Below are positions 2,990-59,643 of a stretch of DNA of 64,000 nucleotides, in pieces. The stretch lies in the NCBI RefSeq assembly GCF_965641715.1, contig NZ_OZ282453.1, one strand, 5' to 3'. The notes beneath the pieces are model-generated. The model saw nothing but the letters and a program-made list of their open reading frames with translations, made no database searches and was not told the origin of the DNA. Within the stretch, counting starts at the first letter, position 1, and the number at the start of each line of letters is the position of its first letter. Made by a program: the position numbers and the translations under genes. The stretch comes from Escherichia coli (GTDB lineage Bacteria > Pseudomonadota > Gammaproteobacteria > Enterobacterales > Enterobacteriaceae).

Positions 2990-4636
2990 ATGTCAAACAA
3001 ACCCTTTCATTATCAGGCTCCTTTCCCACTCAAAAAAGATGATACCGAGTACTACCTGCTGACCAGCGAACATGTCAGCGTATCTGAATTTGAAGGGCAG
3101 GAGATTTTGAAAGTCGCACCCGAAGCGTTAACTCTGTTGGCGCGTCAGGCGTTTCATGATGCGTCGTTTATGCTGCGTCCGGCTCACCAACAACAGGTGG
3201 CCGACATTCTGCGTGACCCGGAGGCCAGCGAAAATGATAAATATGTGGCGCTGCAATTCCTGCGTAACTCCGACATCGCGGCGAAAGGCGTTCTGCCAAC
3301 CTGTCAAGATACCGGCACCGCGATTATTGTTGGTAAAAAAGGGCAGCGTGTATGGACCGGTGGTGGTGATGAAGCGGCGCTGGCGCGCGGTGTCTATAAC
3401 ACTTATATCGAAGATAATCTGCGCTACTCGCAAAACGCGCCGCTGGATATGTATAAAGAAGTGAATACCGGCACCAATCTGCCAGCGCAGATCGATCTTT
3501 ATGCCGTTGATGGCGACGAATACAAATTCCTCTGTATCGCCAAAGGTGGTGGTTCGGCAAACAAGACGTATCTCTATCAGGAAACCAAAGCGTTACTAAC
3601 GCCCGGAAAACTGAAAAATTACCTGGTTGAGAAGATGCGCACGCTGGGTACGGCGGCCTGTCCTCCGTATCATATTGCGTTCGTTATTGGTGGAACATCT
3701 GCAGAAACGAACCTTAAAACGGTGAAACTGGCTTCCGCTAAATACTATGATGAACTGCCAACGGAAGGGAATGAGCACGGTCAGGCGTTCCGCGATGTGG
3801 AACTGGAAAAAGAATTGCTGATCGAAGCGCAAAATCTTGGTCTGGGTGCGCAGTTTGGTGGTAAATACTTCGCTCACGACATCCGCGTGATTCGCCTGCC
3901 ACGTCACGGCGCATCCTGCCCGGTCGGTATGGGCGTCTCCTGCTCTGCTGACCGTAATATCAAAGCGAAGATCAACCGTCAGGGGATCTGGATCGAAAAA
4001 CTGGAACATAATCCAGGCAAATATATCCCGGAAGAGCTGCGCAAAGCGGGAGAAGGCGAAGCGGTGCGCGTTGACCTTAACCGTCCGATGAAAGAGATCC
4101 TCGCACAGTTGTCGCAGTATCCCGTTTCTACACGCTTATCGCTTAACGGCACGATTATCGTTGGTCGTGATATTGCTCACGCCAAACTGAAAGAGCGGAT
4201 GGATAACGGTGAAGGGCTGCCGCAATACATTAAAGATCATCCGATTTACTACGCGGGTCCGGCCAAAACGCCGGAAGGTTATGCCTCCGGTTCTCTTGGC
4301 CCAACGACCGCCGGACGGATGGATTCTTATGTCGATCAACTGCAAGCGCAGGGCGGAAGTATGATCATGCTGGCGAAAGGCAACCGCAGCCAGCAGGTGA
4401 CGGATGCCTGTAAAAAACACGGCGGCTTCTACCTTGGCAGTATCGGTGGTCCGGCCGCTGTATTGGCGCAGGGAAGTATTAAGAGCCTGGAATGTGTTGA
4501 ATATCCGGAACTGGGAATGGAAGCCATCTGGAAAATTGAAGTGGAAGATTTCCCGGCGTTTATTCTTGTGGATGATAAAGGAAATGACTTCTTTCAGCAG
4601 ATACAACTCACACAATGCACCCGCTGTGTGAAATAA
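2990..4636 (+). CDS. fumA: class I (Fe-S) fumarate hydratase
   Basis: 548-aa [27 protein letters not shown]..., matches recalled FumA length and sequence. Confidence 0.95.
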
Positions 4637-37451: not shown

Positions 37452-38471
37452 ATGAAAAGCATATTAATTGAAAAACCGAATCAACTGGCGATTGTCGAAC
37501 GTGAAATACCCACCCCGTCAGCGGGTGAAGTACGAGTAAAAGTGAAACTTGCCGGAATTTGTGGTTCAGATAGCCATATTTATCGTGGGCATAATCCTTT
37601 TGCGAAATATCCGCGCGTCATTGGACATGAATTCTTTGGCGTCATTGATGCGGTGGGTGAAGGTGTGGAAAGCGCCAGAGTCGGTGAACGTGTTGCTGTC
37701 GATCCGGTGGACAGCTGTGGTCATTGCTATCCGTGCTCTATAGGTAAGCCGAACGTTTGTACGACACTCGCTGTATTAGGTGTGCACGCTGACGGTGGTT
37801 TCAGTGAATATGCTGTGGTTCCGGCAAAAAATGCGTGGAAAATTCCTGAAGCAGTGGCCGATCAATATGCGGTGATGATCGAACCTTTTACCATTGCGGC
37901 TAACGTAACCGGTCATGGTCAACCGACTGAAAATGATACCGTTCTGGTTTATGGTGCCGGTCCAATCGGCCTGACGATCGTTCAGGTATTAAAAGGCGTC
38001 TATAACGTTAAAAATGTGATTGTTGCCGATCGCATTGATGAACGACTGGAAAAAGCGAAAGAGAGCGGGGCTGACTGGGTGATTAATAACAGCCAGACAC
38101 CGCTTGGCGAGATTTTCGCTGAAAAAGGCATCAAGCCGACATTAATTATTGATGCGGCTTGTCATCCTTCTATCCTGAAAGAGGCCGTAACGCTGGCTTC
38201 TCCAGCGGCACGTATTGTATTGATGGGCTTCTCCAGTGAACCTTCTGAAGTGATTCAGCAAGGAATTACCGGAAAAGAACTCTCTATTTTCTCTTCACGC
38301 TTAAATGCAAATAAATTTCCGGTCGTTATCGACTGGTTAAGTAAAGGGTTAATTAAACCAGAAAAATTAATTACCCATACGTTTGATTTCCAGCATGTTG
38401 CTGATGCCATTAGTTTATTTGAACAGGATCAAAAACATTGCTGCAAAGTCTTACTCACTTTTTCTGAATAA
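37452..38471 (+). CDS. rspB: starvation-sensing zinc-dependent alcohol dehydrogenase RspB
   Basis: ORF 37428..38471 trimmed to MKSILIEKPNQLAIVEREIP... (339 aa); Zn-ADH motifs GHEFFG and GAGPIG. Confidence 0.92.
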   Translation: MKSILIEKPNQLAIVEREIPTPSAGEVRVKVKLAGICGSDSHIYRGHNPFAKYPRVIGHEFFGVIDAVGEGVESARVGERVAVDPVDSCGHCYPCSIGKPNVCTTLAVLGVHADGGFSEYAVVPAKNAWKIPEAVADQYAVMIEPFTIAANVTGHGQPTENDTVLVYGAGPIGLTIVQVLKGVYNVKNVIVADRIDERLEKAKESGADWVINNSQTPLGEIFAEKGIKPTLIIDAACHPSILKEAVTLASPAARIVLMGFSSEPSEVIQQGITGKELSIFSSRLNANKFPVVIDWLSKGLIKPEKLITHTFDFQHVADAISLFEQDQKHCCKVLLTFSE

Positions 38472-38528
38472 TACCAATAACGGCGAGTAAGTAGTACGCA
38501 TCTTACCTCTTTTTTAGAGATAACCATT

Positions 38529-38657
38529 ATGACAATAGAAAAACACGAAAGAAGCACTAAGGATTTGGTGAAAGCAGCAGTATCGGGATGGCTGGGCACT
38601 GCGCTTGAATTTATGGATTTCAAGAGTCATACGTGTCAACTATTTGATAAATATTAA
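38529..38657 (+). pseudogene. ydfJ: 5' remnant of MFS (MHS-family) transporter gene ydfJ, truncated by prophage insertion
   Basis: ATG with RBS followed by MTIEKHERSTKDLVKAAVSGWLGTALEFMDF..., a typical MHS-transporter N-terminus (E-x-x-DF box), then a stop within about 40 codons just before the integrase 3' end. K-12 ydfJ is known to be split by Qin. Confidence 0.6.
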
Positions 38658-38658
38658 A

Positions 38659-39954
38659 TTAATTTTTCATTGCTTCGTTATGGGGCATGGTTGGGGCAAA
38701 CTCGCTTAACTGTGTATTTAACAAAGCTACCTGTGCATTATTGTTTTCAGACATCCATTTTCCGTATACCTGAAATACCATTTGCGCATCTGCATGGCCC
38801 ATCTGGTTTGCTATAAATGCCGGGTTAGCACCAGCTGTCAGCGACCAGCAGGCATAAGTATGTCTCGACTGATATGATTTTCGATGGCGGAGTCCGGCAC
38901 GTTTTATCGCTGCGTCCCACATCTGCCTTATTGAGTCAACGGTAAAATGGTCACCATAATTTTTTACTCTCGCTGACACTTCAGGTTGAAAAACAAAGGT
39001 GCATTTTTGTTTTTCTGTTCTGCCATACTCTCTCAGGTGAACATCAATGATATGCTCTTTGCTCAGTCTCGTTAATGTCATCTGACTCCGGAGAGCGTCG
39101 ATTGCTGGCTTAATAAGATGAATGACCCGATTGGTTCCCGCCTGTGTTTTTGGTACCGTGAAACGGTCTTTTGCTAAATTTCTCCTGATCATCATTGTTC
39201 CATTTTTCAGATCTATGTCCTCCCATCCAAGTGCACACAGCTCACCAGGGCGAATGCCAGTATAAACAGAAACACACCATAAATTTTTTGCTTGCTGATT
39301 TCTGCACGCATCGATAAGACGGATAAATTCCTCCCGCGAAAGAGGATCCGGAATGGTTCTTGATTCCTTTAATGGCGAGATCCCCTTAAACGGATTATCT
39401 GCCAGGTAACCGTTATCAACACCAAACTGGAACACGGCGTTAAGATTTGTCATGTAATTATTTACAGTTACAGCCGATCTCCCTGGTTGTGTAACAATAT
39501 AGTTACTTTTGGGGATCTGGTATCCAGTCAGTAGCTCTTTACGAACCTCCAGTAATTTTTCTTTATTAATCGATGAGGCAAGATTTTTTTCACCGATTAT
39601 GCTCAGGATATTTTTGATGACGGCACGGTATGTGTTGAGTGATGTTTTGGCGACTTCAGTTTCTTTCAGTGCCAGAAATTTTTCAGCCAGTTCTTTTATG
39701 GTTAAATCTTGTCGGGCCTCACCAAATTTTTCCAGATTGCGTGAGGAGGGAAACTGTTTTGCATAGTCGAAAACACCAGTTTTTATTGCGTAACAAACAG
39801 AGGCGCGTAGTTCACCTGCAACGCGCCTGTTTTTTGCTGTGTCAGGAACCCCCAGATTTTCCCTGACTCTTACGCCTTTATAAACAAACCAGATACGTAA
39901 TTTCCCTCCATGGTTTTCCACGCCTGTCGGATATTTCATTTCAACTTCTCTCAT
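38659..39954 (-). CDS. intQ: prophage tyrosine integrase (P4-type), apparently intact
   Basis: 431-aa ORF with C-terminal tyrosine-recombinase catalytic region (R...HxxR...Y, e.g. SRHTYACWS and YGKW); first gene inside the prophage. Start may be Met6 (39939). Confidence 0.9.
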   Translation of the reverse strand: MREVEMKYPTGVENHGGKLRIWFVYKGVRVRENLGVPDTAKNRRVAGELRASVCYAIKTGVFDYAKQFPSSRNLEKFGEARQDLTIKELAEKFLALKETEVAKTSLNTYRAVIKNILSIIGEKNLASSINKEKLLEVRKELLTGYQIPKSNYIVTQPGRSAVTVNNYMTNLNAVFQFGVDNGYLADNPFKGISPLKESRTIPDPLSREEFIRLIDACRNQQAKNLWCVSVYTGIRPGELCALGWEDIDLKNGTMMIRRNLAKDRFTVPKTQAGTNRVIHLIKPAIDALRSQMTLTRLSKEHIIDVHLREYGRTEKQKCTFVFQPEVSARVKNYGDHFTVDSIRQMWDAAIKRAGLRHRKSYQSRHTYACWSLTAGANPAFIANQMGHADAQMVFQVYGKWMSENNNAQVALLNTQLSEFAPTMPHNEAMKN

Positions 39955-39973
39955 TAGTTAGTGTGGCTTTTAG

Positions 39974-40225
39974 TCAAGTAAGATGACGTCTTGGTCTCGC
40001 TGATGCCTGGCGCTCAATCCAGCGATCAATTTCTTCCAGGTTGTAAAAGCATGGACTGTTATCCCATGGCATACCGTCATGAGCGACATGCTTATATTCC
40101 CTTCCTTCCATAAACGATTTTTCCCGGGCCTTTTTTAACGTACCTTTTTTTATTCCTTTCAGCGCAATTAACTGCTCTTCGGATACCCATTTGCCGGGAG
40201 AGACAATCATGATTACTTCGCTCAT
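39974..40225 (-). CDS. excisionase-like small DNA-binding protein
   Basis: 83-aa basic ORF immediately upstream of int in the same orientation; classic Xis position. Confidence 0.65.
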   Translation of the reverse strand: MSEVIMIVSPGKWVSEEQLIALKGIKKGTLKKAREKSFMEGREYKHVAHDGMPWDNSPCFYNLEEIDRWIERQASARPRRHLT

Positions 40226-40297
40226 CGATTTCTTTATCTCTTACATCAGACGAGCGCCGGTTGCAGAATACCAGTCACAACCGGCGACAGTTGAACA

Positions 40298-42769
40298 TTA
40301 AGAATCAGCCTGACTCGGGATCAGTTTTTGCCAGATAACTGAAACGTATTTTGCCTGGTAACGGGCGTCATCAAGTGCATTATGGCGCTCACCTTCGAAT
40401 GGAATAGCCGTTCTGGCATCGAAATCTATGGCTTTCCCCAGCTCAACGATTGTGCGTACATCGCGATCGTTGTAGTAACGCCACGGGCAGGGGATCCCCT
40501 GCCGTTCGTATGAACGGCGCAAAATCGTGTTGTCGAAGTTGGCTCCATTTCCCCAAACCTGAACAAATAATTCACCGGAGTTTTCGTCGATAAATTCCCG
40601 CAATTGTAACAGTGCATCATCTAACGGGATTTCATCGGTCATAATGGCAGATTGTGCTTCGCGTGATTGCTTAAGCCACCATTTAATGGTGTCCCGATCA
40701 ATGACTCCGCCAGCAGTTTCCAGATCGATAGTCTTACTAAATTCCGGTCCTATATCTCCGGTTTGCGGATCGAAAAATATTGCACCTATTGAGATGATCG
40801 GTGCATCAGGATTTTTTCCCATGGTTTCAAGGTCGATCATTAGATGGTCACACGTCCTGCTGGTGGATGTGATTTCGTGATGACCGTTCACCTTAATTGA
40901 GTGATCTGCCGTCTCGCCAGTTTCATTATCGCTATTGTGATGCTGATTGCCGCCAGTGTTCTCCTTGTGTGGATGTTCAGCGCCTTCCATTTCCTCCGGA
41001 TCATCTTCCTGAACTTCAACCTGATACTCTTCATCGAATGTTTCTTGGTATGTTGCGTCGCCCATCACCGCGCCACAATCAGGGCAGTTGCCGCCGCCAG
41101 TCTGACCGCAGGCGGTGCAGACTTTTTCCACTTCCTGTTGCGCCACTGGTTCAGGCTGTTTCGTTTCTGGCTCGTTTTGTAACGCATTTGGGCTGTTTTG
41201 TTCCGCTTTTTGGTAGTTCCGTTCCGATTCATGCTGGTTCTGGTTCACAGAATCGCGGGTCTGGATCCCCTTAACCCATTTCGGATCATTCGGGTCACTA
41301 ATCCCTTCAACAAATTCACCATGTGATGCAGCAAGCAACTTATCGGCGTCAGGCTGGCTGATATTGGCTGCCTGCATAATTTTGTTTACTTCGTCAGCGG
41401 TAACTTTTATCGGCTCTGGTTGTTCTGAATCTTCAGCGGTATCTACATTTTGCGGTAAGCCCGTGTATGTGCCATTTTTTCGGGCAAAATATTCTTCTTT
41501 TGTGATTTCAGTGGCGCCAGCAGCCAGTGCCTTATCCAGACCAGAAAGTTTGTTTGCGCGACCGTATTTTTCTCCGTCCTTATCTGCGAAGAGGAAATAG
41601 AACGGCCCCTCACGCTCTACAGATGGTTCAGCTTCCGGCGCGGTTTCATTTTTTGGGATATCAGATACCTCAGTTTCCACTGCATCAGTTTGTGTTTCTG
41701 ATGACTGGAGAACATCAACAGTGCCCAGGTCTGTTTCTTCATTCTCAAACACGCCCTTTGTCGTCAGGTATTCGCAGATATATTTGTTCAGTGCTACGGG
41801 ATCTTTGTGAATGTCGATCGGACGCTCACGGACAAGGCCAAAAATAGTTTGGCGGTCGTAGCGAAGGGCATCAGGCTGTTTGCGCATTGATGCCGAGATA
41901 CGCTTCCAGTCTTCGCGGTCGTTGTCGATAACTTCTTTTTTTGCCCAGCGATGGATGCTGCCGTCAATGTTTCCGGCATCCACATCACCAGGCCAGAGAG
42001 CGTAGGCCAGTTCGTCATCCAGTGTTTTCCATGTCTGCTTGTATTCGCGATGAATGGCAGCAATGACCGGGCTGATTTTTCCTGTTGAATTTTCAGTGTA
42101 CTGTTGATTGGCTCTGGCGCGGGCGAGATCAACAACAGACGTGTATTTTCCGGTTTCCTTGCGTTCACCTTCGCGACGTTTTTTCCAGATGCGCATCTCT
42201 GCCTGAATTTCGGGCCATTTAGCACCAGGAATACATTTATGCTTAACCCACCCAATGGCGTGCAACTTAAGCTCCGGATACATGGCGTTAACTTCTGGCA
42301 TTTTCATCAACGCTTCAACGATATGTCCGTCGAATGTTGCCATGTCTTCCTGCAACAATTCCTGTGCGCTAATAACCATATCAACGGTGATGTTTTCACA
42401 TGTGTCGAACTTAACCATGACAGCGTTCTGTACTTCAGGGGCCAGCTTGTCAAAAGTGACGTTCATCGGATCGGATTCAGTCTCAACCGGGACAAAAGAA
42501 GCTGACTCCTCATCCCAGCGGTTTTCCTGCATATATTCAGCATCCCATGAATCGAGGGCAGGGCGGGGTATGCCAGGTTTATCCTCGCAGACAATAAATT
42601 TATAAGCGCAGTCCTGAGCAGCCGGATAATGTTCCAGGAACTGCCAGTGAAATTTTGCTCGAGCACGGCGTTCGTCGCCAGCTTCAATGGCTGTGGCTAC
42701 AGCCACAGCGCCTTCTTCCCTTGTTGCCAGTTCGTCAGGAATAGCGGCGCAAATAAAGACTTTACTCAT
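40298..42769 (-). CDS. large prophage early-left protein with C-terminal DEDDh (DnaQ-like) 3'-5' exonuclease domain; full-length counterpart of K-12 ydfE-region pseudogene
   Basis: 823-aa ORF; C-terminal roughly 180 aa carry exonuclease motifs (MIDLETMG, WGNGANFD, HNALDDA); central acidic region and CxxC...CxxC zinc-ribbon-like motif (CTACG...CPDCG); occupies the exo/recombination slot between xis and the dicB operon. Confidence 0.7.
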   Translation of the reverse strand: MSKVFICAAIPDELATREEGAVAVATAIEAGDERRARAKFHWQFLEHYPAAQDCAYKFIVCEDKPGIPRPALDSWDAEYMQENRWDEESASFVPVETESDPMNVTFDKLAPEVQNAVMVKFDTCENITVDMVISAQELLQEDMATFDGHIVEALMKMPEVNAMYPELKLHAIGWVKHKCIPGAKWPEIQAEMRIWKKRREGERKETGKYTSVVDLARARANQQYTENSTGKISPVIAAIHREYKQTWKTLDDELAYALWPGDVDAGNIDGSIHRWAKKEVIDNDREDWKRISASMRKQPDALRYDRQTIFGLVRERPIDIHKDPVALNKYICEYLTTKGVFENEETDLGTVDVLQSSETQTDAVETEVSDIPKNETAPEAEPSVEREGPFYFLFADKDGEKYGRANKLSGLDKALAAGATEITKEEYFARKNGTYTGLPQNVDTAEDSEQPEPIKVTADEVNKIMQAANISQPDADKLLAASHGEFVEGISDPNDPKWVKGIQTRDSVNQNQHESERNYQKAEQNSPNALQNEPETKQPEPVAQQEVEKVCTACGQTGGGNCPDCGAVMGDATYQETFDEEYQVEVQEDDPEEMEGAEHPHKENTGGNQHHNSDNETGETADHSIKVNGHHEITSTSRTCDHLMIDLETMGKNPDAPIISIGAIFFDPQTGDIGPEFSKTIDLETAGGVIDRDTIKWWLKQSREAQSAIMTDEIPLDDALLQLREFIDENSGELFVQVWGNGANFDNTILRRSYERQGIPCPWRYYNDRDVRTIVELGKAIDFDARTAIPFEGERHNALDDARYQAKYVSVIWQKLIPSQADS

Positions 42770-42862
42770 TTTGTTTTAACCTCATGACAGATTTAAGGAT
42801 GAACAAATCCCTGCCATTGCTGGCATATAAGAATGAAACCGGATATTTATTACGGAACTGTT

Positions 42863-43054
42863 TTAAAGACCTGCCGGGATTTCGATATTATCCTGGTGAA
42901 TAACTTTATCGACCGGGTAACAGTTACCGGGAATTTTCTGTTCGGTTGCTGCAGTCATACACTCCTGCATTGTCCTGTGAACACTGTCTGCAATATCAAC
43001 TGGCTCTCCGGAAACAAGAAAAGCTGTCAGAACAAGCGCAAATGCTGAATTCAT
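42863..43054 (-). CDS. ydfD: small secreted/membrane protein YdfD-like (dicB operon)
   Basis: ORF trimmed to MNSAFALVLTAFLVSGEPVD... (63 aa); start ATG overlaps the dicB stop as ATGA. Confidence 0.75.
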   Translation of the reverse strand: MNSAFALVLTAFLVSGEPVDIADSVHRTMQECMTAATEQKIPGNCYPVDKVIHQDNIEIPAGL

Positions 43055-43239
43055 TGTGTACATCCTTTTGGCATCAGACGTAAACGAGCCAGCATTGAAA
43101 CAATGCATATTTTATTTAATAGCTCCCGTTCTTGTTTTCTCTTGTTAATGGCATCTTCAGTAAATACAGGGTTACTGATAGTGACACCAATTTCAAAACA
43201 ACCTTCAGACGTATTAACGTTTGGTAATAACGTTTTCAT
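43051..43239 (-). CDS. dicB: cell division inhibitor DicB
   Basis: Internal Met of ORF 43051..43344 gives 62 aa, MKTLLPNVNTSEGCFEIGVTISNPVFTEDAINKRKQERELLNKICIVSMLARLRLMPKG..., matching recalled DicB. Confidence 0.88.
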   Translation of the reverse strand: MKTLLPNVNTSEGCFEIGVTISNPVFTEDAINKRKQERELLNKICIVSMLARLRLMPKGCTQ

Positions 43240-43413
43240 TATCGCGTCCTCAACAATGAATTTTGTGATGCAGTGCCTGGTGCCTCCAGGTGACGTTAAC
43301 CAGTTAACAATTAACGCCGGATACAGAGAATCCACCCATAACACTGTTTTTGGTTTTAACTGTTCCGCGTGCGCTTAGCCGCATTCACCGCATCACAAAA
43401 TTCACTTTAAAAA

Positions 43414-43466
43414 CGGCGGCAGAGCAGTCACGGAGTAAAACTGATACCGCCAAACGTCACCAGAAA
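43414..43466 (-). ncRNA. dicF: DicF small regulatory RNA (ftsZ-targeting)
   Basis: Reverse complement reads tttctggtgacgtttggcggtatcagttttactccgtgactgctctgccgcc, essentially identical to recalled 53-nt DicF, followed by a T-run; lies just upstream of dicB. Confidence 0.85.
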
Positions 43467-43910
43467 ATTGATAACAGAGGGCGTTGCAGCGGGGTTGTCA
43501 CTTAAGCGTATGGTCAACCTGACAACTCGGTGTCCTCAACGGGGAAGGAATAACCCCGCCATACTTACCGCCGCGCCATTTCGCGGGTTGCCACAACCGG
43601 AAGCGCACGGTCGAATTAAATTTAACGACACCGTACAGTGAGACGAACTTCGCCGTGCGCTTTCGTGTTGTGTGCCTGCTTTTAACCACGTCAGGCGAGG
43701 TGGTATCCTTCTTATCCAGAATAACCAAGAAGGAAATCTATATGACTAAAGAAGAATTTGTCTCTTATATTTTTGATAAAACGGTTGAAATGTATGCCGC
43801 TACTTACGGGTCCTGTAATCCTCTGAATAAACCAGAGGGGAAAGATGATTTCGACAAAATTTACCGCTTCTTGGAGGACCGCTATATCAAAAGGTTAGAG
43901 GACGCAGGGA

Positions 43911-44288
43911 TCAAATCCCCAGTGAAGTCACCATTGTCCTGAGAACTTGCAGGACGTCATGATCGTAACTTCCATCCAAACCGCGACGGCAAATTGCTTC
44001 TCGTATTACCGGAAGCAGTTCGCTGGAAATCTCGGTGCATATTTCACCTGATAATACGCCTGGCTCAAGTGAGAATATTGGTGAACTTACGGTCTTGGTC
44101 TCGACAGTTTCAGAGTCAGTGCCAACATTATAAAGCTCAACGAAAGCGGTCTTGATTTTCCGGGCCAGATCTTTTGCTGGCTCGCTTGCAATATCTTTCC
44201 CGATTTCTCGCAGCACAGAATGCAATGTATGAGCTGCTGTTTTCTGTACATCAGACGGTAAATCTTTAAATTCCATCGTCAGCCTCAT
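43911..44288 (-). CDS. hypothetical protein in the ydfB/ydfC position of the dicB operon
   Basis: 125-aa ORF whose start overlaps the ydfA stop (ATGA); K-12 has two short genes (ydfB, ydfC) here. Confidence 0.5.
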   Translation of the reverse strand: MRLTMEFKDLPSDVQKTAAHTLHSVLREIGKDIASEPAKDLARKIKTAFVELYNVGTDSETVETKTVSSPIFSLEPGVLSGEICTEISSELLPVIREAICRRGLDGSYDHDVLQVLRTMVTSLGI

Positions 44289-44440
44289 CAGTCAGTGTTT
44301 CTGGCTAACCAGCAACGCGCGCCAGATTCGGTTTTAAACGTTTTGCTTTTGGTATATGTCATCGCGGTGAACGTACCGTCCTGGTTGGGGAACACGCCAC
44401 ATACCAGAGATTCGCTGTTGCCAAGATCGATAGTATCCAT
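44288..44440 (-). CDS. ydfA: DUF1391 small protein YdfA-like
   Basis: Internal Met of ORF 44288..44596 gives 50 aa, MDTIDLGNSESLVCGVFPNQDGTFTAMTYTKSKTFKTESGARCWLARNTD; first gene of the early-left operon. Confidence 0.7.
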   Translation of the reverse strand: MDTIDLGNSESLVCGVFPNQDGTFTAMTYTKSKTFKTESGARCWLARNTD

Positions 44441-44632
44441 GCTGACCTCATTTCCCCTTAACGCCGGGGTAGCGGAACTGTTTGCTGAGAACACCGTGCG
44501 GTGTCTTGATGGAAGTAATTTAGTTTTCTCATTATTTTTCGTCAAGGTTTTTTTATGAGAAAACTCAAGTATTGGCGCAAGATAAAGCCAATACATTGAA
44601 ATGTAAGGCTTTAAAATTTTGTGAAGGGATGA

Positions 44633-45040
44633 TTATTGATGCTTGTTGCGTTTGCGAGCCTCTAATAGCTCGGTGAACAGGCGATTAAAATTCTCAACGC
44701 GGGCGCGGAGTTCGCTGAGTTGTGCTTGTTGCTCTGATTTAGGAAGTGCGCGATACAAACGCAGCATCTCTAACTCATCTTCCGATAAGTCTAAGGCACT
44801 ATCGAGTGAAACAGGGGGAGCTGGTGTTTTGTCCTCGTCGCCAAACAGTATCCAGGTTGGTGAACATTGCAATACCTCGGCGAGGCGATGCAAATTTTGC
44901 CCGCGCGGGGCTGTATGGTCACTTTCCCATAATGAAATTGATGAGCCAGATACGCCAGCAGCTTTGCTTAAACCGTTTTGACTTAAGCCTACCTGCTTAC
45001 GTCTTTCTCTAATGCGTTGACCTAAAGTTTTCTCGTTCAT
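44633..45040 (-). CDS. dicA: prophage repressor, DicA-like (XRE-family HTH)
   Basis: ORF trimmed to MNEKTLGQRIRERRK... (135 aa); HTH QNGLSKAAGVSGSSISLWE; C-terminal half ...LQCSPTWILFGDEDK... matches recalled DicA closely. Confidence 0.85.
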   Translation of the reverse strand: MNEKTLGQRIRERRKQVGLSQNGLSKAAGVSGSSISLWESDHTAPRGQNLHRLAEVLQCSPTWILFGDEDKTPAPPVSLDSALDLSEDELEMLRLYRALPKSEQQAQLSELRARVENFNRLFTELLEARKRNKHQ

Positions 45041-45117
45041 ATTTAGATATCTTAATAACCCTTGACTTGAGATTCCTTGAGTGATTAGCATTGAGAAAAC
45101 TCAATATTGGAGGTGCG
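45041..45117. promoter_or_regulatory. divergent immunity promoter/operator region between dicA-like and dicC-like genes
   Basis: 77-bp intergenic region with perfect palindrome attgag-aaaa-ctcaat (about 45090..45105) and repeated cttgag elements, SD ggagg for the rightward gene. Confidence 0.5.
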
Positions 45118-45345
45118 ATGTTTAAATCAGACGTAATTAATTTTTACGGTACGAAAGCCAAAGTAGCGAAAGCTGCTGGCGTTGACCCATCTGCTGTTTC
45201 TCAATGGCAAGAGCTGGTTCCTGAAGGTCGCGCGATGCGTCTACAGGAGGCATCTGGCGGCGAGCTTCTGTATGATCCCAAGGTTTATGACGAATATCGT
45301 AAGACGAAGCGGGCGGGGCGGTTGAACAATGAAAATCACTCCTGA
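45118..45345 (+). CDS. dicC: Cro-like regulator, DicC-like
   Basis: 75-aa ORF from ATG 45118 (six-frame ORF began at an upstream TTG) with strong SD ggagg; divergent from the repressor. Confidence 0.8.
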   Translation: MFKSDVINFYGTKAKVAKAAGVDPSAVSQWQELVPEGRAMRLQEASGGELLYDPKVYDEYRKTKRAGRLNNENHS

Positions 45346-45850
45346 ACAGGCTCGTGAGGCTCTGGATGCCTGGATATGTCGACCAGGAATGACACAGGAG
45401 CAGGCGACGATATTAATCACTGAAGCATTCTGGGCTTTGAAAGAGCGCCCGAACATCGATGTTCAGCGTGTCACAGATGAAGGTGGCGCGGTTGATCAGC
45501 GAGCGCTTGGCGTTAATCGAGTGAAGATATTCGAACGCTGGAAGGCTATCGACACTAGGGATAAGCGTGAAAAGTTCACGGCGCTAGTGCCTGCAATTAT
45601 GGAGGCTATCCGGATTAATGATTTCAGGTTGTATCGTGAAATTAGTGACGGAAAAAGCATCACGTACATGATCGCCGGGTTAAACAAAGAATATGGCGAT
45701 GTGGTGGAGTCCGGACTGCTTTTTGCTGATCCTGCCGTAGTGGATCGTGAAACTGACGAACTTATAGAAAAAGCAATTGCTTTCAAACTTGCGTATCGAC
45801 AGCAATACCAACAAAAAGCTGGATGGAATTATGAGCCTTCTTTTTGCTGA
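45329..45850 (+). CDS. YdaT-like prophage early protein
   Basis: 173-aa ORF directly after the cro-like gene, the position YdaT occupies in Rac-type prophages; weak recalled similarity only. Confidence 0.55.
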   Translation: MKITPEQAREALDAWICRPGMTQEQATILITEAFWALKERPNIDVQRVTDEGGAVDQRALGVNRVKIFERWKAIDTRDKREKFTALVPAIMEAIRINDFRLYREISDGKSITYMIAGLNKEYGDVVESGLLFADPAVVDRETDELIEKAIAFKLAYRQQYQQKAGWNYEPSFC

Positions 45851-46796
45851 ACGCCCACTGGTTATAAACACACAGCTTGCGATGAAGATTGGCTTAAATG
45901 AAGCCATTGTGTTGCAGCAGTTGCATTACTGGTTGAGAGATACCAATTCCGGCATGGAATGTGATGGTGTTCGCTGGATTTACAACACAACGGAACAATG
46001 GCTGGAACAGTTCCCATTCTGGTCAGAGTCAACGTTAAAGCGCGCGTTTGCAAGTCTGAAAACGCTGGGGCTTTTGCGTTGTGAAAAGCTCAATAAATCA
46101 AAGCGCGATATGACCAATTTCTACACGATCAACTACGGGAGCGAGCTTTTAGATGGTGGCAAATTGAGCGAATCCATCGGTTTAAAATGCGCCGCTCCAT
46201 CAGGTCAAAATGACACGATGGAAGAGGTCAAAATGAAACGCTCCATTGGTTCAAAACGACCCAATGTCATCGGGTCAAAATGGCCTGATGATCTTACAGA
46301 GAATACAACAGAGATTACTACAGAGAATAAAAACACTTTTCGTCCGGAAGCTTCGCAACCGGACCCGCAGACCGCTGAACAGGATTTTTTAACCCGGAAC
46401 CCCGACGCGGTTGTGTTTAGTGCGAAAAAACGCCAGTGGGGTAGCAGGGAGGATTTGGCGTGTGCGCAGTGGATTTGGGGGCGGATCGTGAACCTTTACG
46501 AACAGGCTGCCAGCGACGATGGAGAGATCATGCGACCAAAAGAGCCTAACTGGACAGCCTGGGCCAATGACGTGCGCACAATGCGGATGCTGGATGGCAG
46601 AAGCCACAGACAAATTTGCGAAATGTTTGGTCGGGTACAGCGAGATCAATTCTGGGTAAAAAACATCATGAGCCCGTCAAAACTCCGCGAAAAATGGGAC
46701 GAACTGGTCATCCGCCTGGGACGTTCACCTGTACAGCGTTGTATGAATCATATTTCTGAACCGGATACAGAAATTCCGCCTGGTTTCAGAGGATAA
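45831..46796 (+). CDS. phage replication initiation protein (O-like / DNA-binding replication protein)
   Basis: ORF 45777..46796 trimmed to ATG at 45831 (MSLLFAERPLVINTQLAMKIGLNEAIVLQQLHYWL...), overlapping the upstream stop; N-terminal HTH-like segment; position after cro/ydaT. Confidence 0.6.
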   Translation: MSLLFAERPLVINTQLAMKIGLNEAIVLQQLHYWLRDTNSGMECDGVRWIYNTTEQWLEQFPFWSESTLKRAFASLKTLGLLRCEKLNKSKRDMTNFYTINYGSELLDGGKLSESIGLKCAAPSGQNDTMEEVKMKRSIGSKRPNVIGSKWPDDLTENTTEITTENKNTFRPEASQPDPQTAEQDFLTRNPDAVVFSAKKRQWGSREDLACAQWIWGRIVNLYEQAASDDGEIMRPKEPNWTAWANDVRTMRMLDGRSHRQICEMFGRVQRDQFWVKNIMSPSKLREKWDELVIRLGRSPVQRCMNHISEPDTEIPPGFRG

Positions 46797-46836
46797 GTTT
46801 TGATTTCAGGTCATGAGGTAATTTTAAGGGGGACTT

Positions 46837-47238
46837 GTGGCAAAAGTTTTTACACAAGAAGAGCGGGAAAAAATTAAAGGGCAGGTGGTGGAACTCGTGC
46901 GCCAGAGCGGTCGTGAGACGTTACGGCAACTGGAAGCTAAAACAGGTGCGACTAGATATCTGATGAGCGTTCTTGCCAGAGAGCTGGTAGCCAGTGGCGA
47001 TGTATACAACTCCGGCTACGGGTTATTCCCGTCTGAACAGGCGCGTAAGGACTGGCAAAACGCCCGCAAAAAACTATCGAGGGCAAAGGTGAAGAAAACA
47101 GCTGTGGTTGATCCGGACCTTATCTGGTCGTTACCTGATGGAGAAATACGTCGCTACGACAGTCGCCTAAACATAATCTGTCGCGAGTGCCGGATGAGTG
47201 AAGTTATGCAGCGCATACTGGCATTTTATCAGGGATAA
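46837..47238 (+). CDS. hypothetical protein, possible winged-helix DNA-binding protein
   Basis: 133-aa ORF with GTG start preceded by strong SD (taaggggg); segment TLRQLEAKTGATRYLMSVLARELVASGDVY resembles a wHTH. Confidence 0.5.
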   Translation: MAKVFTQEEREKIKGQVVELVRQSGRETLRQLEAKTGATRYLMSVLARELVASGDVYNSGYGLFPSEQARKDWQNARKKLSRAKVKKTAVVDPDLIWSLPDGEIRRYDSRLNIICRECRMSEVMQRILAFYQG

Positions 47239-47611
47239 TGTTAGGTATTTTAGACGTTACTAGATTAAAAAGCATTAGTTCAGGAGTGAATTGACATTCT
47301 CATTTTTCATGGCACAGGGTAGATCTGGCGTGGTTGTCCGCTTTGTGCCAAGAGCGGACGTTGGTATGCAAGAGCCCTCCAAAAGTTGATGGTTGGTTTG
47401 CAGGGGGGCTTAAAGAAACTGCACTTATCAAGTTGAAGTTCTGTATTCAGCGAAATCGTAGCACTCTGACGATAAGTAACTCCGGTACTCCGCTCTTCGA
47501 TGAAGAACCAGAGTAATCCCCCCGAAAAACCAGCGCATCAAAATTGGATCTTCAGCGGTAGCTTATCGGCTATCGGAAGTACAGGTGTGGATTCGTGGTG
47601 AATTGCTTTGA

Positions 47612-47646
47612 TAATAAACGATTAATACGGAAAAACGTATTAATCA
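47612..47646 (-). terminator. hairpin terminator downstream of the 449-aa orphan gene
   Basis: Perfect inverted repeat attaatacg-gaaaaa-cgtattaat about 30 nt past the stop, followed on the transcribed strand by a U-rich stretch. Confidence 0.5.
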
Positions 47647-55358: not shown

Positions 55359-55609
55359 CTCTTCAATTACTATATCTCATTCATAGCAAACTGACAGATT
55401 TGATGATGTTCTATATACGAAACCTGTGATGTCAAGTCTGAGCTAATACAAATAAACATAATATCAGAGAAATACATTTTATTAGCTCGCTACGGCGAGC
55501 TTTTTATATTGCATCGTCTCCAGCATATATATCAATTAAGGCTCTGATTGATGTGTCTGGAGGCCTACACATAATAACTATGCCATCCGTTCCGTGCGGA
55601 GGTGAGGCT

Positions 55610-55825
55610 ATGAAATCCATGGACAAAATTTCAACAGGTATTGCCTACGGCACCTCCGCAGGCAGTGTTGGCTACTGGTTTTTACAGCTGCTCGATAAAG
55701 TCACGCCCTCACAGTGGGCAGCAATAGGTGTGCTGGGTAGCCTGGTATTTGGCCTGCTGACGTACCTGACAAATCTTTATTTCAAGATTAAAGAAGACAG
55801 GCGTAAGGCTGCGAGAGGAGAGTAA
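55610..55825 (+). CDS. essQ: class II holin (EssD/EssQ-like) with dual-start motif
   Basis: Six-frame ORF 55553..55825 trimmed to [29 protein letters not shown]... (71 aa) after SD ggagg; two TM segments; Met-Lys-x-Met dual start. Confidence 0.85.
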
Positions 55826-55829
55826 TCCA

Positions 55830-56137
55830 ATGACTCAAGACTATGAACTGGTTGTGAAAGGAGTCCGTAATTTTGAGAATAAAGTTACGGTAACTGTAGC
55901 CTTACAGGACAAAGAACGCTTTGACGGTGAAATTTTTGGCCTGGATGTCGCCATGGACCGTGTTGAAGGAGCTGCGCTGGAGTTTTATGAGGCAGCAGCC
56001 AGAATGAGCGTCCGGCAAGTCTTCCTGGAAGTAGCAGAAAAATTGTCAGAAAAAGTTGAGTCTTATCTGCAGCATCAGTACTCCTTTAAGATTGAAAATC
56101 CTGCCAATAAGCACGAGCGTCCTCATCATAAATATCT

Positions 56138-56141
<4 letters not shown>
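55830..56141 (+). CDS. ydfR: DUF1327 prophage protein YdfR-like
   Basis: 103-aa ORF between holin and endolysin, the position and length of ydfR in Qin. Confidence 0.65.
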
Positions 56142-57165
<1,024 letters not shown>

Positions 57166-57528
57166 ATTAATATTAAATCGGATTATTTTTAGCGCTGAAT
57201 GTGAAATTTAAATAAAAAGGACTCTTCCATGAGTCAAAATCCTTGAAATCTTAAGGGTAAGATAAAAGGTCATTAGACAGAATGACACGTTTTATTAATA
57301 AATAAAGCTATTGTTTCATTCGTGTGTTTTTCTTTACAAAAGTAATCCTTGCTATGGTTGGTTAATCATGCGTTAATGGTGTTCTGGTTTGTTACAAAAT
57401 TATCTGAAGCAGTCATTGTTATAATTTTATTATTTGTACCTCTTGAGATTTCCTTGTTGGTTTTTCTCTCTGATATTTTTTTTCGGACCATTCTGCCCAA
57501 GGGCTAACTTCTTCAAAAGGTAATAATG

Positions 57529-57741
57529 ATGTCTAACAAAATGACTGGTTTAGTGAAATGGTTTAACCCTGAAAAAGGTTTTGGTTTCATCACGCCGAAA
57601 GATGGTAGCAAAGATGTGTTTGTGCATTTCTCAGCTATTCAGAGCAACGATTTCAAAACGTTAACTGAGAATCAGGAAGTCGAATTTGGTATTGAGAACG
57701 GACCTAAAGGCCCTGCAGCTGTTCATGTAGTGGCACTTTGA
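57529..57741 (+). CDS. cspI: cold-shock-domain protein CspI-like
   Basis: 70-aa [38 protein letters not shown]... with RNP1/RNP2 motifs; long AT-rich 5' UTR typical of csp genes. Confidence 0.9.
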
Positions 57742-57944
57742 GGTAGAAAATATTACAAACCATATTCACTTTAGATGCCCGTGTTGCCATGGTTCTCAGT
57801 ATAGAACATCATCTTTTGATGTTTCTGACAGAAATCCTTTCGGGGCAAAATGTATCTTTTGTAAATCAATGATGATTACATTTGATAATATTTCACAATA
57901 CTTAAATGTTAGCCATCTGTCGTTAGATTTAAGAAAGTGAAAAT

Positions 57945-57970
57945 GAAGGCTCCTTCGGGAGCTTTTTTGC
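57945..57970 (+). terminator. Rho-independent terminator downstream of cspI
   Basis: gctcc-ttcg-ggagc hairpin followed by ttttttgc. Confidence 0.5.
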
Positions 57971-57973
57971 TTA

Positions 57974-58243
57974 GTGTCTAGTCGATGGATACTCACATAT
58001 TACGGTAACATTATGAAAAAAATAATAGTTTTTTTTAACTCTGAACCAGCAATGGTAGTGCCAGTGATGACCGGAGTTAACACCATCATGCGTGAATATC
58101 CAAATGGCGAAACAACACACCTCACTGTAATGGCTGCAGGGTTTCCATCTCTGACCGGAGATCATAAAGTCATTTATGTAGCAGCGGATCGACATGTAAC
58201 TTCAGAAGAAATTCTGGAAGCAGCAATGAGACTCTTGAATTGA
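57974..58243 (+). CDS. hypothetical small protein
   Basis: 89-aa six-frame ORF; real start may be the internal MKKIIVFF...; no recognisable motif. Confidence 0.35.
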   Translation: MSSRWILTYYGNIMKKIIVFFNSEPAMVVPVMTGVNTIMREYPNGETTHLTVMAAGFPSLTGDHKVIYVAADRHVTSEEILEAAMRLLN

Positions 58244-58412
58244 TTTGATTCTAATGCATTGATAATAAATGATAATCATCTTTATCTGTTTGTGTGAAAT
58301 TTAGACCGTCGTATGTTGATTATTGCGATGTTTCATCTTATCTTTTATACGTTTGCTCCATATAATTGACACTACTGTGTACCAGGACAGTCATAACAGA
58401 CTAAAAGAGGAA

Positions 58413-58589
58413 ATGATGAACATTGAAGAGTTAAAAACAAAAACAGAAGCAGATATTTCTGAATATATAACAAAAAAAATCATTGAGCTTAAGAAAAAGA
58501 CTGGGAAAGAAGTTACCAGTATCCAGTTTACTGCACGGGAAAAAATGACTGGTCTTGAAAGCTATGATATCAAGATTGATTTAATCTAG
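58413..58589 (+). CDS. gnsB: GnsA/GnsB-family small protein
   Basis: Internal Met of ORF 58323..58589 after SD agagga gives MMNIEELKTKTEADISEYITKKIIELKKKTGKEVTSIQFTAREKMTGLESYDIKIDLI, matching recalled GnsB-type sequence. Confidence 0.72.
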   Translation: MMNIEELKTKTEADISEYITKKIIELKKKTGKEVTSIQFTAREKMTGLESYDIKIDLI

Positions 58590-58884
58590 CATGTTTATAG
58601 TATTAGCATCAATTTCTCATCAGATGCTATTCAACAATACAAATTACCCATAAACCTCGTTTTTACGGGGTTTTGTTATATTTAAACATTACCGAATAGA
58701 TATAAATCTCGATTGTCGATGGTATTGGTTGTGTGACAATACCTAGTCTTTCCGGTATGCCTGAAGAGAATACAAACGACAGATTATGTAAGGGAAACGC
58801 GCTGAAACTTTCACTCTTTCATGCTGAGTGATTTGACGTTATATTTTTAGCCGCAAGTGAAGAGCAAACGAATGGAGCGACAAA

Positions 58885-59091
58885 ATGCATAAAGATCAAT
58901 ACACTGATGCCCCCTCCCAGGAGCAGGTTCGTGTAAAAACTATGCTTAATAGCACCATTTCGATGGGTTACCCGGATGTTGTAATTGCATGTATAGAACA
59001 TCAAGTATCTCTGGAAGCATTCAGGGCAATTGAGGCCGCGTTAGTAAAGCACGATAAGAATACGAAGGATTATTCCCTGGTGGTTGACTGA
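58885..59091 (+). CDS. hypothetical small protein
   Basis: 68-aa ORF with ATG; no assignment. Confidence 0.4.
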
Positions 59092-59439
59092 TCACCATAA
59101 CTGCTAACCATTCTGACCATTTCACAAGTGACAGAGTCAATATCGTATTCTGTCACTGTAAGGCTAATACAGTACTGCAATTCAACTACAGCAATGCCTC
59201 GTATTTAGGTGAATTTACAATATCGTCCAGTTCGGATGCCGGCTGCATTTCTGAAGATAAGGCATTTCGGTTCGCGTATTTTCCCCTCATGCTCGTCAGT
59301 CCTGCGCGTAGTAAGAAACAGGACACTCACACTAATTTGTGTGGGCATGCTGTGATGTCCTTCTGAATTATCCCCATGCCATTATGTAACGCTCTGTTTC
59401 AGATGCTCGTCACGGTTGTCAGGCTGTCGGGTCCTCCCA

Positions 59440-59520
59440 GTGGGGGTCCCTGCCACGGGGCGGGAGCGTCGCGGAAAAAGGCTAGTTTTTGAAATTTTAT
59501 TCGTCATCACCACTACTTTA
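59440..59520. other. candidate cos site (cosN plus terminase-binding region), lambda-like
   Basis: ccACGGGGCGGGAGCGTCGCGG...TTTTTGAAATTTTATTCGTCATCAC parallels recalled lambda cosN/cosB (ACGGGGCGGCGACCTCGCGG...TTTATGAAAATTTTCCGG...TTCGTCATAAC), about 170 bp upstream of the small terminase gene. Confidence 0.55.
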
Positions 59521-59643
59521 ATTGATTGATATTACAGTGGTTTTATTTTTATGGTGTCGATTCTGATTGTTTTTTGTTCATCACTAACACCGTTTGCCTA
59601 AAGTTGTTCGCAAGATGCATGTTTAAAACATTCTGGAGCGGGT

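Follow-up and report, generated by a model that had tools for sequence, protein, structure and literature searches.

A variant dicBF operon of a Qin-type Escherichia coli prophage with an unrelated cassette between ydfA and the DicF leader

A block of small genes within a 64-kb stretch of E. coli DNA, referred to here as the window, raises two related questions. The first is whether the block represents the dicBF operon that has been studied in the K-12 prophage Qin, and the second is what occupies the place held in K-12 by ydfB and ydfC. The first question has a simple answer. The locus is a dicBF operon of the well-studied kind, carried by a Qin-type E. coli prophage; it is ordinary, already known, and already annotated in hundreds of genomes. 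The second question leads to a variant form of this operon. Based on the evidence described below, the region is very probably an early-left operon of the PL type, from a lambdoid prophage of the Qin family that is apparently intact and located beside rspB; a cassette unrelated to ydfB and ydfC occupies the slot that separates ydfA from the DicF leader.

The dicBF block lies on the minus strand, and ydfA, DicF, dicB and ydfD can all be identified and are intact. Leftward from 45040 (-), the order is a repressor gene, a control region that places 192 bp between the repressor and ydfA, ydfA itself, the ORF that fills the slot, an untranslated leader, DicF, dicB, ydfD, a hairpin and an exonuclease gene. 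The order, the strand logic, the ATGA overlap of dicB and ydfD and the site adjoining rspB are all shared with the Qin dicBF locus of K-12 (ydfABC-dicF-dicB-ydfDE). In blastn comparisons with Qin of NC_000913, the segment from the leader to the part of ydfE at the K-12 IS2 insertion point (window 43683..42003) is 98% identical, ydfA with its 5' UTR (44514..44297) is 90% identical, and the distal half of cro together with the next gene (45608..45217) is 97.7% identical. The same comparisons revealed no counterpart for the immunity core (45217..44514) and no match across the slot (44297..43683). Because the immunity core and the slot between ydfA and the leader lack K-12 counterparts, the locus is best described as a mosaic of the K-12 operon in which two segments have been swapped. 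Specifically, the immunity region from 44514 to 45217 is exchanged relative to Qin, and where K-12 has ydfB and ydfC the window instead possesses an unrelated gene of 121 aa and a convergent gene of 66 aa. In addition, the ydfE exonuclease, xis and int are intact in the window, while in Qin of K-12 they are affected by the IS2 interruption.

The DicF sRNA (43466..43414, -) is 53 nt long and is followed by a U-run that forms part of a leaky intrinsic terminator. It matches Rfam RF00039 over the full model with a score of 72.5 bits, compared to a gathering score of 48 (E=5e-15). Of its 53 nt, 52 are identical to K-12 dicF, and the sole change is the replacement of C by G at the last base, which is unpaired and lies outside the terminator stem. 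Since positions 1-52 are unchanged, the pairing regions are those of K-12, and the folds predicted by ViennaRNA for the two alleles are alike. The description of DicF as recognisable nearly base for base, given by the first-pass annotation, therefore agrees with the alignment, and no divergence in the pairing regions was found. The untranslated leader upstream of DicF (43467..43683, -) was delimited by alignment with K-12 and is nearly invariant from about 43655 downstream. Over the interval 43683..43240, the identity to K-12 is 94.4% overall, with gaps at the 5' edge. A match to STnc100 between dicF and dicB scored 34.5 against a gathering score of 47, below the cutoff, and is not claimed.

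The gene for the cell-division inhibitor DicB (43239..43051, -; 62 aa) was identified by Pfam PF05358 (DicB, E=3e-40), by NCBIfam NF049927 (CellDivInhibDicB, 132 bits compared to an equivalog-level cutoff of 100) and by its identity to the K-12 protein, from which it differs only by A61T (61/62 aa, 98.4%). The next gene, ydfD (43054..42863, -; 63 aa), contains DUF1482 (E=1.5e-23) and encodes a lysis protein according to its K-12 counterpart, with which it shares 60/63 aa (95%). The start of ydfD overlaps the stop of dicB in the sequence ATGA at 43054..43051, exactly the K-12 arrangement. Alignment with K-12 detected no frameshifts in either gene, so that DicB and YdfD are intact as originally described. 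More broadly, the proposal of a complete and intact dicB-operon module held up at the level of sequence, given a stretch from the leader through dicF and dicB to ydfD that is 98% identical to K-12 and free of frameshifts. The promoter-proximal gene ydfA (44440..44288, -; 50 aa) is a DUF1391 member (PF07151, E=4e-27) preceded by a GAGG Shine-Dalgarno sequence, and is 88% identical to its K-12 counterpart at the amino acid level and 90% at the nucleotide level. On the 3' side of ydfD, a promoter and terminator scan identified a weak terminator-like hairpin (42812..42825, -) followed by GGGATTTGTT, whose position is consistent with the end of the ydfA to ydfD transcript known from K-12. The intact exonuclease gene then follows (42769..40298, -), encoding an 823-aa protein with an Rv2179c-like 3'-5' exonuclease domain. 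It corresponds to the K-12 pseudogene ydfE in full-length form, and from here the early-left operon continues toward xis and int.

In K-12, division inhibition, ManYZ-dependent phage resistance and YdfD-mediated lysis have all been demonstrated for dicBF (PMC5069750, PMC6832061, PMC8835842, PMC10448788). DicF represses ftsZ, xylR and pykA (PMC5069750) and is released from the polycistronic RNA at sites in the leader for RNase III, which yields a 190-nt species, and for RNase E, which yields the 53-nt species (PMC10448788). DicB binds MinC, stops Z-ring formation through ZipA and inhibits ManYZ; as a result of its expression, cells are about 100-fold resistant to lambda and 434, with phi80 unaffected (PMC6832061). 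YdfD is a lysis protein whose target is the IspG step of the MEP isoprenoid pathway (PMC8835842). Given the near-identity of the sequences, it seems reasonable to carry the functions of K-12 DicF, DicB and YdfD over to the allele in the window.

The control region differs more from K-12. The repressor gene (44633..45040, -) encodes a DicA-like HTH protein of 135 aa, recognised by Pfam HTH_3 and annotated by PGAP in identical genomes. The protein shares 57% identity with K-12 DicA (blastp) and possesses no S24 peptidase domain. Because the identity to DicA is only 57%, the immunity specificity is expected to differ from that of K-12. The divergent gene next to the repressor encodes a P22_Cro domain, with a C-terminal half that resembles that of DicC, the Cro-like regulator of K-12, and an N-terminal half that is different. 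A PL-type promoter is predicted at 44545..44517 (-), within an element spanning 44517..44568, with a -35 hexamer TTGACG (44545..44540), a 17-nt spacer and a -10 hexamer TAAATT (44522..44517); homology to K-12 begins at 44514, just past this -10. Around the promoter, a putative operator 13-mer, TGAGAAAACTCAA, occurs in a recurrent pattern. Exact copies in the 64-kb window are found at 44556..44568 and 45092..45104, an inverted copy with one mismatch lies at 44531..44519, and beyond these three copies the window contains no site with fewer than three mismatches. The two leftward copies lie on either side of the -35 hexamer of the PL-type promoter, with an overlap onto its -10, and the rightward copy directly adjoins the -10 of a TTGACT/TAGCAT site that precedes cro, the position of PR. 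The repeats themselves suggest that these copies are operators of the repressor. By analogy with dicBp and DicA of K-12, the predicted promoter would serve as the PL-type promoter of the operon, and the lambdoid OL/OR arrangement of DicA, DicC and dicBp is common to the window, with a different specificity (PMC10448788).

The slot contains an open frame of 125 codons (44288..43911, -) between ydfA and the DicF leader. The initial reading of the block included two ATGA couplings. That of dicB and ydfD is present, but the junction of ydfA with the ORF at 44288 reads TGATG (44290..44286), a 1-nt overlap of stop and start, and the ATG at 44288 lacks a Shine-Dalgarno sequence. The next ATG in this frame, at 44276, follows a GAGG with a spacer of 6 nt, and the NCBI annotation pipeline PGAP takes it as the start in identical genomes. 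The gene probably starts at this codon and would then extend over 44276..43911 (-) and encode a protein of 121 aa (WP_001320327.1, phrog_33007), or 125 aa if the ATG at 44288 were used. A second gene, of 66 aa, is located on the opposite strand (43742..43942, +; WP_000159335.1, phrog_34441). It is annotated by PGAP and in a phage record and is preceded by an AAGGA Shine-Dalgarno sequence. The two genes are convergent, and their 3' ends overlap by 32 nt. The first-pass annotation listed a single ORF in the slot and missed this second, convergent gene. No canonical intrinsic terminator was found 3' of the 66-aa gene, and the ydfBC slot of K-12 contains no analogous antisense ORF with an ATG start.

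The ATG of the 66-aa gene is preceded, at a distance of about 25-35 nt, by a conserved motif that resembles an extended -10, TGGTATCCT, at approximately 43709..43717 as read off the alignment. The corresponding consensus, GGTG(G/A)TA(T/C)CCTT, is kept in 5/5 aligned contexts and reads as an extended -10 (TGnTAyCCT), which suggests that the gene may possess a private promoter. The protein family retains a length of 65-66 aa down to 54% identity and an invariant N-terminus, MT(K/N)EEFV.YIFDKTVE. An AF2 model predicts a two-helix hairpin (pLDDT 79.5), for which Foldseek detected no match with E<1 in the PDB. The 121-aa protein is modular, with an N-module at residues 1-52, a linker, and a C-module at residues 71-121, approximately. 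The N-module matches several other PHROGs and also occurs at the start of numerous small proteins whose C-termini are unrelated. The C-module is found as a stand-alone protein in a Cedecea prophage and with other N-termini in further prophages. In the AF2 model, residues 53-80 are predicted to form a disordered linker of 28 residues, and the model as a whole (pLDDT 62) is too weak for a structure search. Searches of Pfam, NCBIfam and PADLOC returned no family for either cassette protein and no match to known defence or toxin-antitoxin systems. Single-sequence and profile searches of 5.8 billion proteins, as well as phmmer against 1.84 billion representatives, placed the relatives of both proteins only in small unannotated families of the Enterobacterales. 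The only near-match of the cassette proteins to a described family was to an archaeal histone model (E=0.047), well below the cutoff of that model, and was ignored.

Two overlapping ORFs of this size raise the concern that only one of them, either the 66-aa or the 121-aa frame, is a real gene. Values of dN/dS are 0.10-0.26 for the 66-aa family in ten pairwise comparisons and 0.27-0.54 for the 121-aa family, and both genes are under purifying selection. The signal is weaker for the 121-aa gene, whose structural model is also of low confidence and interrupted by the disordered linker, and both families are tiny and unannotated. These points would favor a single gene. However, the two frames share just 32 nt, which leaves most of each unconstrained by the other. 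Moreover, the constraint on the 66-aa family holds to 54% identity with hardly any change in length, each of the two modules of the 121-aa protein is kept in independent contexts, and both genes are preceded by Shine-Dalgarno sequences. It is therefore unlikely that only one of the two is real, and both ORFs appear to be genes.

The variant operon is not confined to the window. Over 37660..50301, the window and E. coli P15-385 (STEC) are 99.8% identical; in that strain, full-length genes for exonuclease, excisionase and integrase come after the operon, the last adjoining rspB at the Qin attachment site. Escherichia phage mEp460_ev081 (LR597641.1), a free phage genome, matches 38606..59577 at 98.7% identity, and within this interval the 1.85-kb operon block is 98.5% identical; the late genes of the window beyond about 59.6 kb differ from those of this phage. 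BL21(DE3) matches the window at 99.8% identity over 44523..42272. BL21(DE3), P15-385 and mEp460_ev081 thus share the same variant operon with its cassette at 98.5-100% identity, and in all of them both cassette genes are annotated as hypothetical proteins. In BL21(DE3), the exonuclease is truncated and the integrase frameshifted. In the window, the prophage is apparently intact, although the end of the window cuts through it.

These comparisons bear on whether the dicBF block could be a decayed relic without function, a common description of the cryptic Qin. For a long time, defective prophages were the sole known source of dicBF, and a 2016 study reported no phage genome with a match to DicB or DicF (PMC5069750). 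This reading is nevertheless very unlikely to apply here. All genes of the operon are intact, full-length genes for the exonuclease, xis and int are present, in contrast to K-12 and BL21, and the near-identical block in mEp460_ev081 is found in the record of a phage isolate. In addition, approximately 60 phage records match part of the dicBF block. The occurrence of a dicBF variant in an apparently intact prophage, with an early region close to that of a sequenced phage isolate, updates the view that the operon is restricted to defective prophages.

The relationship of the slot to ydfB and ydfC can be addressed more directly. The first-pass annotation had proposed that the ORF is a fused ydfB/ydfC, of which K-12 would carry a split version. 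Similarity was absent at the DNA, protein and profile levels, and a fusion of ydfB and ydfC was rejected. Specifically, blastn found no match across the slot, the best tblastn hit of the 125-aa product in the K-12 ydfA-dicF interval had E=1.4, and hhalign of a profile of 13 sequences from the ORF family gave probabilities of 0.1% and 0.2% with YdfB and YdfC, respectively. The PHROGs families are disjoint as well, with the ORF in phrog_33007, YdfB in phrog_2061 and YdfC in phrog_1744. That K-12 ydfB and ydfC are split halves of an ancestral gene preserved as the 125-aa ORF is thus barely credible, since only the shared position between ydfA and the DicF leader and a length of 125 aa near the sum of YdfB and YdfC (42 + 72 aa) speak for it, while ydfB and ydfC are two separate annotated genes in several phages and in the 2,298 of 5,426 complete E. 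coli genomes that carry the K-12-type pair, and the ORF resembles a fusion of other modules, one known from small phage proteins and the other from the stand-alone protein of Cedecea. Judged from these comparisons, the slot content is a non-homologous replacement by an alternative cassette.

Among the same 5,426 complete genomes, the cassette is present in 391, including BL21(DE3), and it is also found in the isolated phage mEp460_ev081. The dicF leader is far more widespread, with 11,329 places in 4,720 of the genomes. Many dicF loci vary in the slot, so ydfB and ydfC are not essential to the dicBF family. This slot is a hot-spot of recombination. The presence of the cassette in BL21 deserves mention because this standard expression host carries it in place of the K-12 ydfBC, with an uncharacterised small antisense gene inside the operon. 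Because the BL21 operon holds this antisense gene, results on the regulation of dicBF in K-12 may not transfer to it unchanged.

By analogy with the experiments in K-12, one can outline for the window how the operon would be regulated, how its RNA would be processed and what its products would do. The DicA-like repressor would bind the 13-bp operators at the promoter at 44545..44517 as well as the copy at the divergent cro promoter. Because it possesses no self-cleavage domain, an antirepressor presumably relieves the repression. Rem, a homologue of which is encoded at 50138..50389, is a candidate; in K-12, Rem derepresses dicBp (PMC10448788). Upon derepression, a polycistronic RNA would be transcribed leftward through ydfA and the 121-aa gene and then through the long leader, from which RNase III and RNase E would free DicF. 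Read-through of the DicF terminator would allow expression of dicB and the translationally coupled ydfD, followed by the exonuclease, xis and int. As for the products, DicF would repress ftsZ and other mRNAs, DicB would redirect MinC to midcell and block ManYZ, and YdfD would cause lysis. The 66-aa gene, convergent to this early-left operon, would be self-promoted. Since it could interfere with read-through, the output of DicF and DicB may differ from that in K-12.

The two parts of the cassette also travel outside dicBF. The C-module and the 66-aa gene occur together and convergently in all contexts seen, in lambdoid prophages with or without dicB. At four loci (L005, L008, L009 and L010), the pair lies directly after the repressor gene at the head of a leftward operon that contains neither ydfA nor dicB, and at two others (L006 and L007) it is flanked by cro and a cII-like gene. 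No DicF reached the Rfam gathering score in related loci that have the cassette but no dicB. In every case seen, the 66-aa gene runs antisense to the early operon and is located just after the first gene or genes of that operon, at PL in the window and in four other prophage types; in Cedecea it is found at PR, between cro and cII. This consistent antisense placement would allow a role either in lysogens or in transcription interference. A tentative and rather improbable proposal is that lambdoid prophages share a portable two-gene module composed of the C-module and the 66-aa gene, in which the 66-aa gene encodes a factor expressed in the lysogen or acts as a brake through convergent transcription. 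As a brake, convergent transcription of the 66-aa gene would limit leaky read-through from PL into the toxic dicF-dicB-ydfD segment.

The PL operon of lambda offers a parallel for this arrangement. It encodes the division inhibitor Kil, and sieB lies antisense inside the PL region; the counterpart in Rac is kilR/sieB. As in the window, these are early-left operons controlled by a CI-type repressor, with an inhibitor of host division aboard and a small antisense gene that could be self-promoted in the lysogen. The lambda and Rac operons have no sequence relationship to that of the window. Lambda also encodes N, a transcription-antitermination factor, and no N-type antiterminator gene was found in the slot. 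SieB of lambda is membrane-bound, whereas the 66-aa protein looks soluble in its model, with two predicted amphipathic helices.

The early region of the prophage carries a reversed gene (window 47673..49022, minus strand) that opposes its neighbours within the rightward early and replication region. The PADLOC model PD-T7-1 covers its 449-aa product from end to end (E=4e-157), and no Pfam domain was found in this product. The gene represents a known single-gene anti-phage defense system, which the prophage bears as an accessory gene, or moron.

The immunity core (window 44514..45217) has been exchanged relative to K-12. The window repressor shares 57% identity with DicA of K-12 Qin. Cro is nearly identical to its K-12 counterpart in the C-terminal half and different in the N-terminal half. 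One border of this mosaic lies at the PL transcription start and the other within cro. Further along, an 83-aa homologue of the Rem antirepressor (window 50138..50389, plus strand) lies beside a copy of hokD (window ~49766..49921, plus strand). In strain P15-385, which is 99.8% identical here, PGAP flags this hokD copy as a pseudogene with an internal stop.

A conserved 66-aa gene (window 43742..43942, plus strand) lies antisense to the dicBF operon and goes unmentioned in the first-pass annotation of this operon. In all examined contexts the gene is antisense to an early operon, either that of PL (five prophage types) or that of PR (Cedecea), and in every one the C-module of the 121-aa cassette protein is convergent with it.

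Within the spacer between dicF and dicB, Rfam matched the Salmonella sRNA STnc100 (window 43207..43416, minus strand; E=9e-5) at 34.5 bits, below the threshold of 47. The match takes in a conserved CACCUGGAGGCACCAGGCAC hairpin. The stretch, which is identical in K-12, may be a homologous leader element. Related cassette prophages without dicB have a tRNA gene within the long leader downstream of the cassette (L005 ~4257..4329; L009 ~3968..4040). Just 3' of the cassette, the L005 leader also contains a DicF-like GGCGG...CCGCCCUUUUU terminator hairpin, which falls below the Rfam DicF threshold. In the related prophages, C4 antisense RNA and isrK, both identified with Rfam (L008 7625..7813 and L006 759..846), adjoin Phage_ASH/pRha antirepressor-type genes, and together these constitute a P1/P7-style secondary immunity system.

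Finally, the window encodes a full-length, 823-aa exonuclease (window 40298..42769, minus strand) with an Rv2179c-like 3'-5' exonuclease domain at its C-terminal end. The ydfE of K-12 is a remnant of this gene truncated by IS2, and the BL21 version has an internal deletion.
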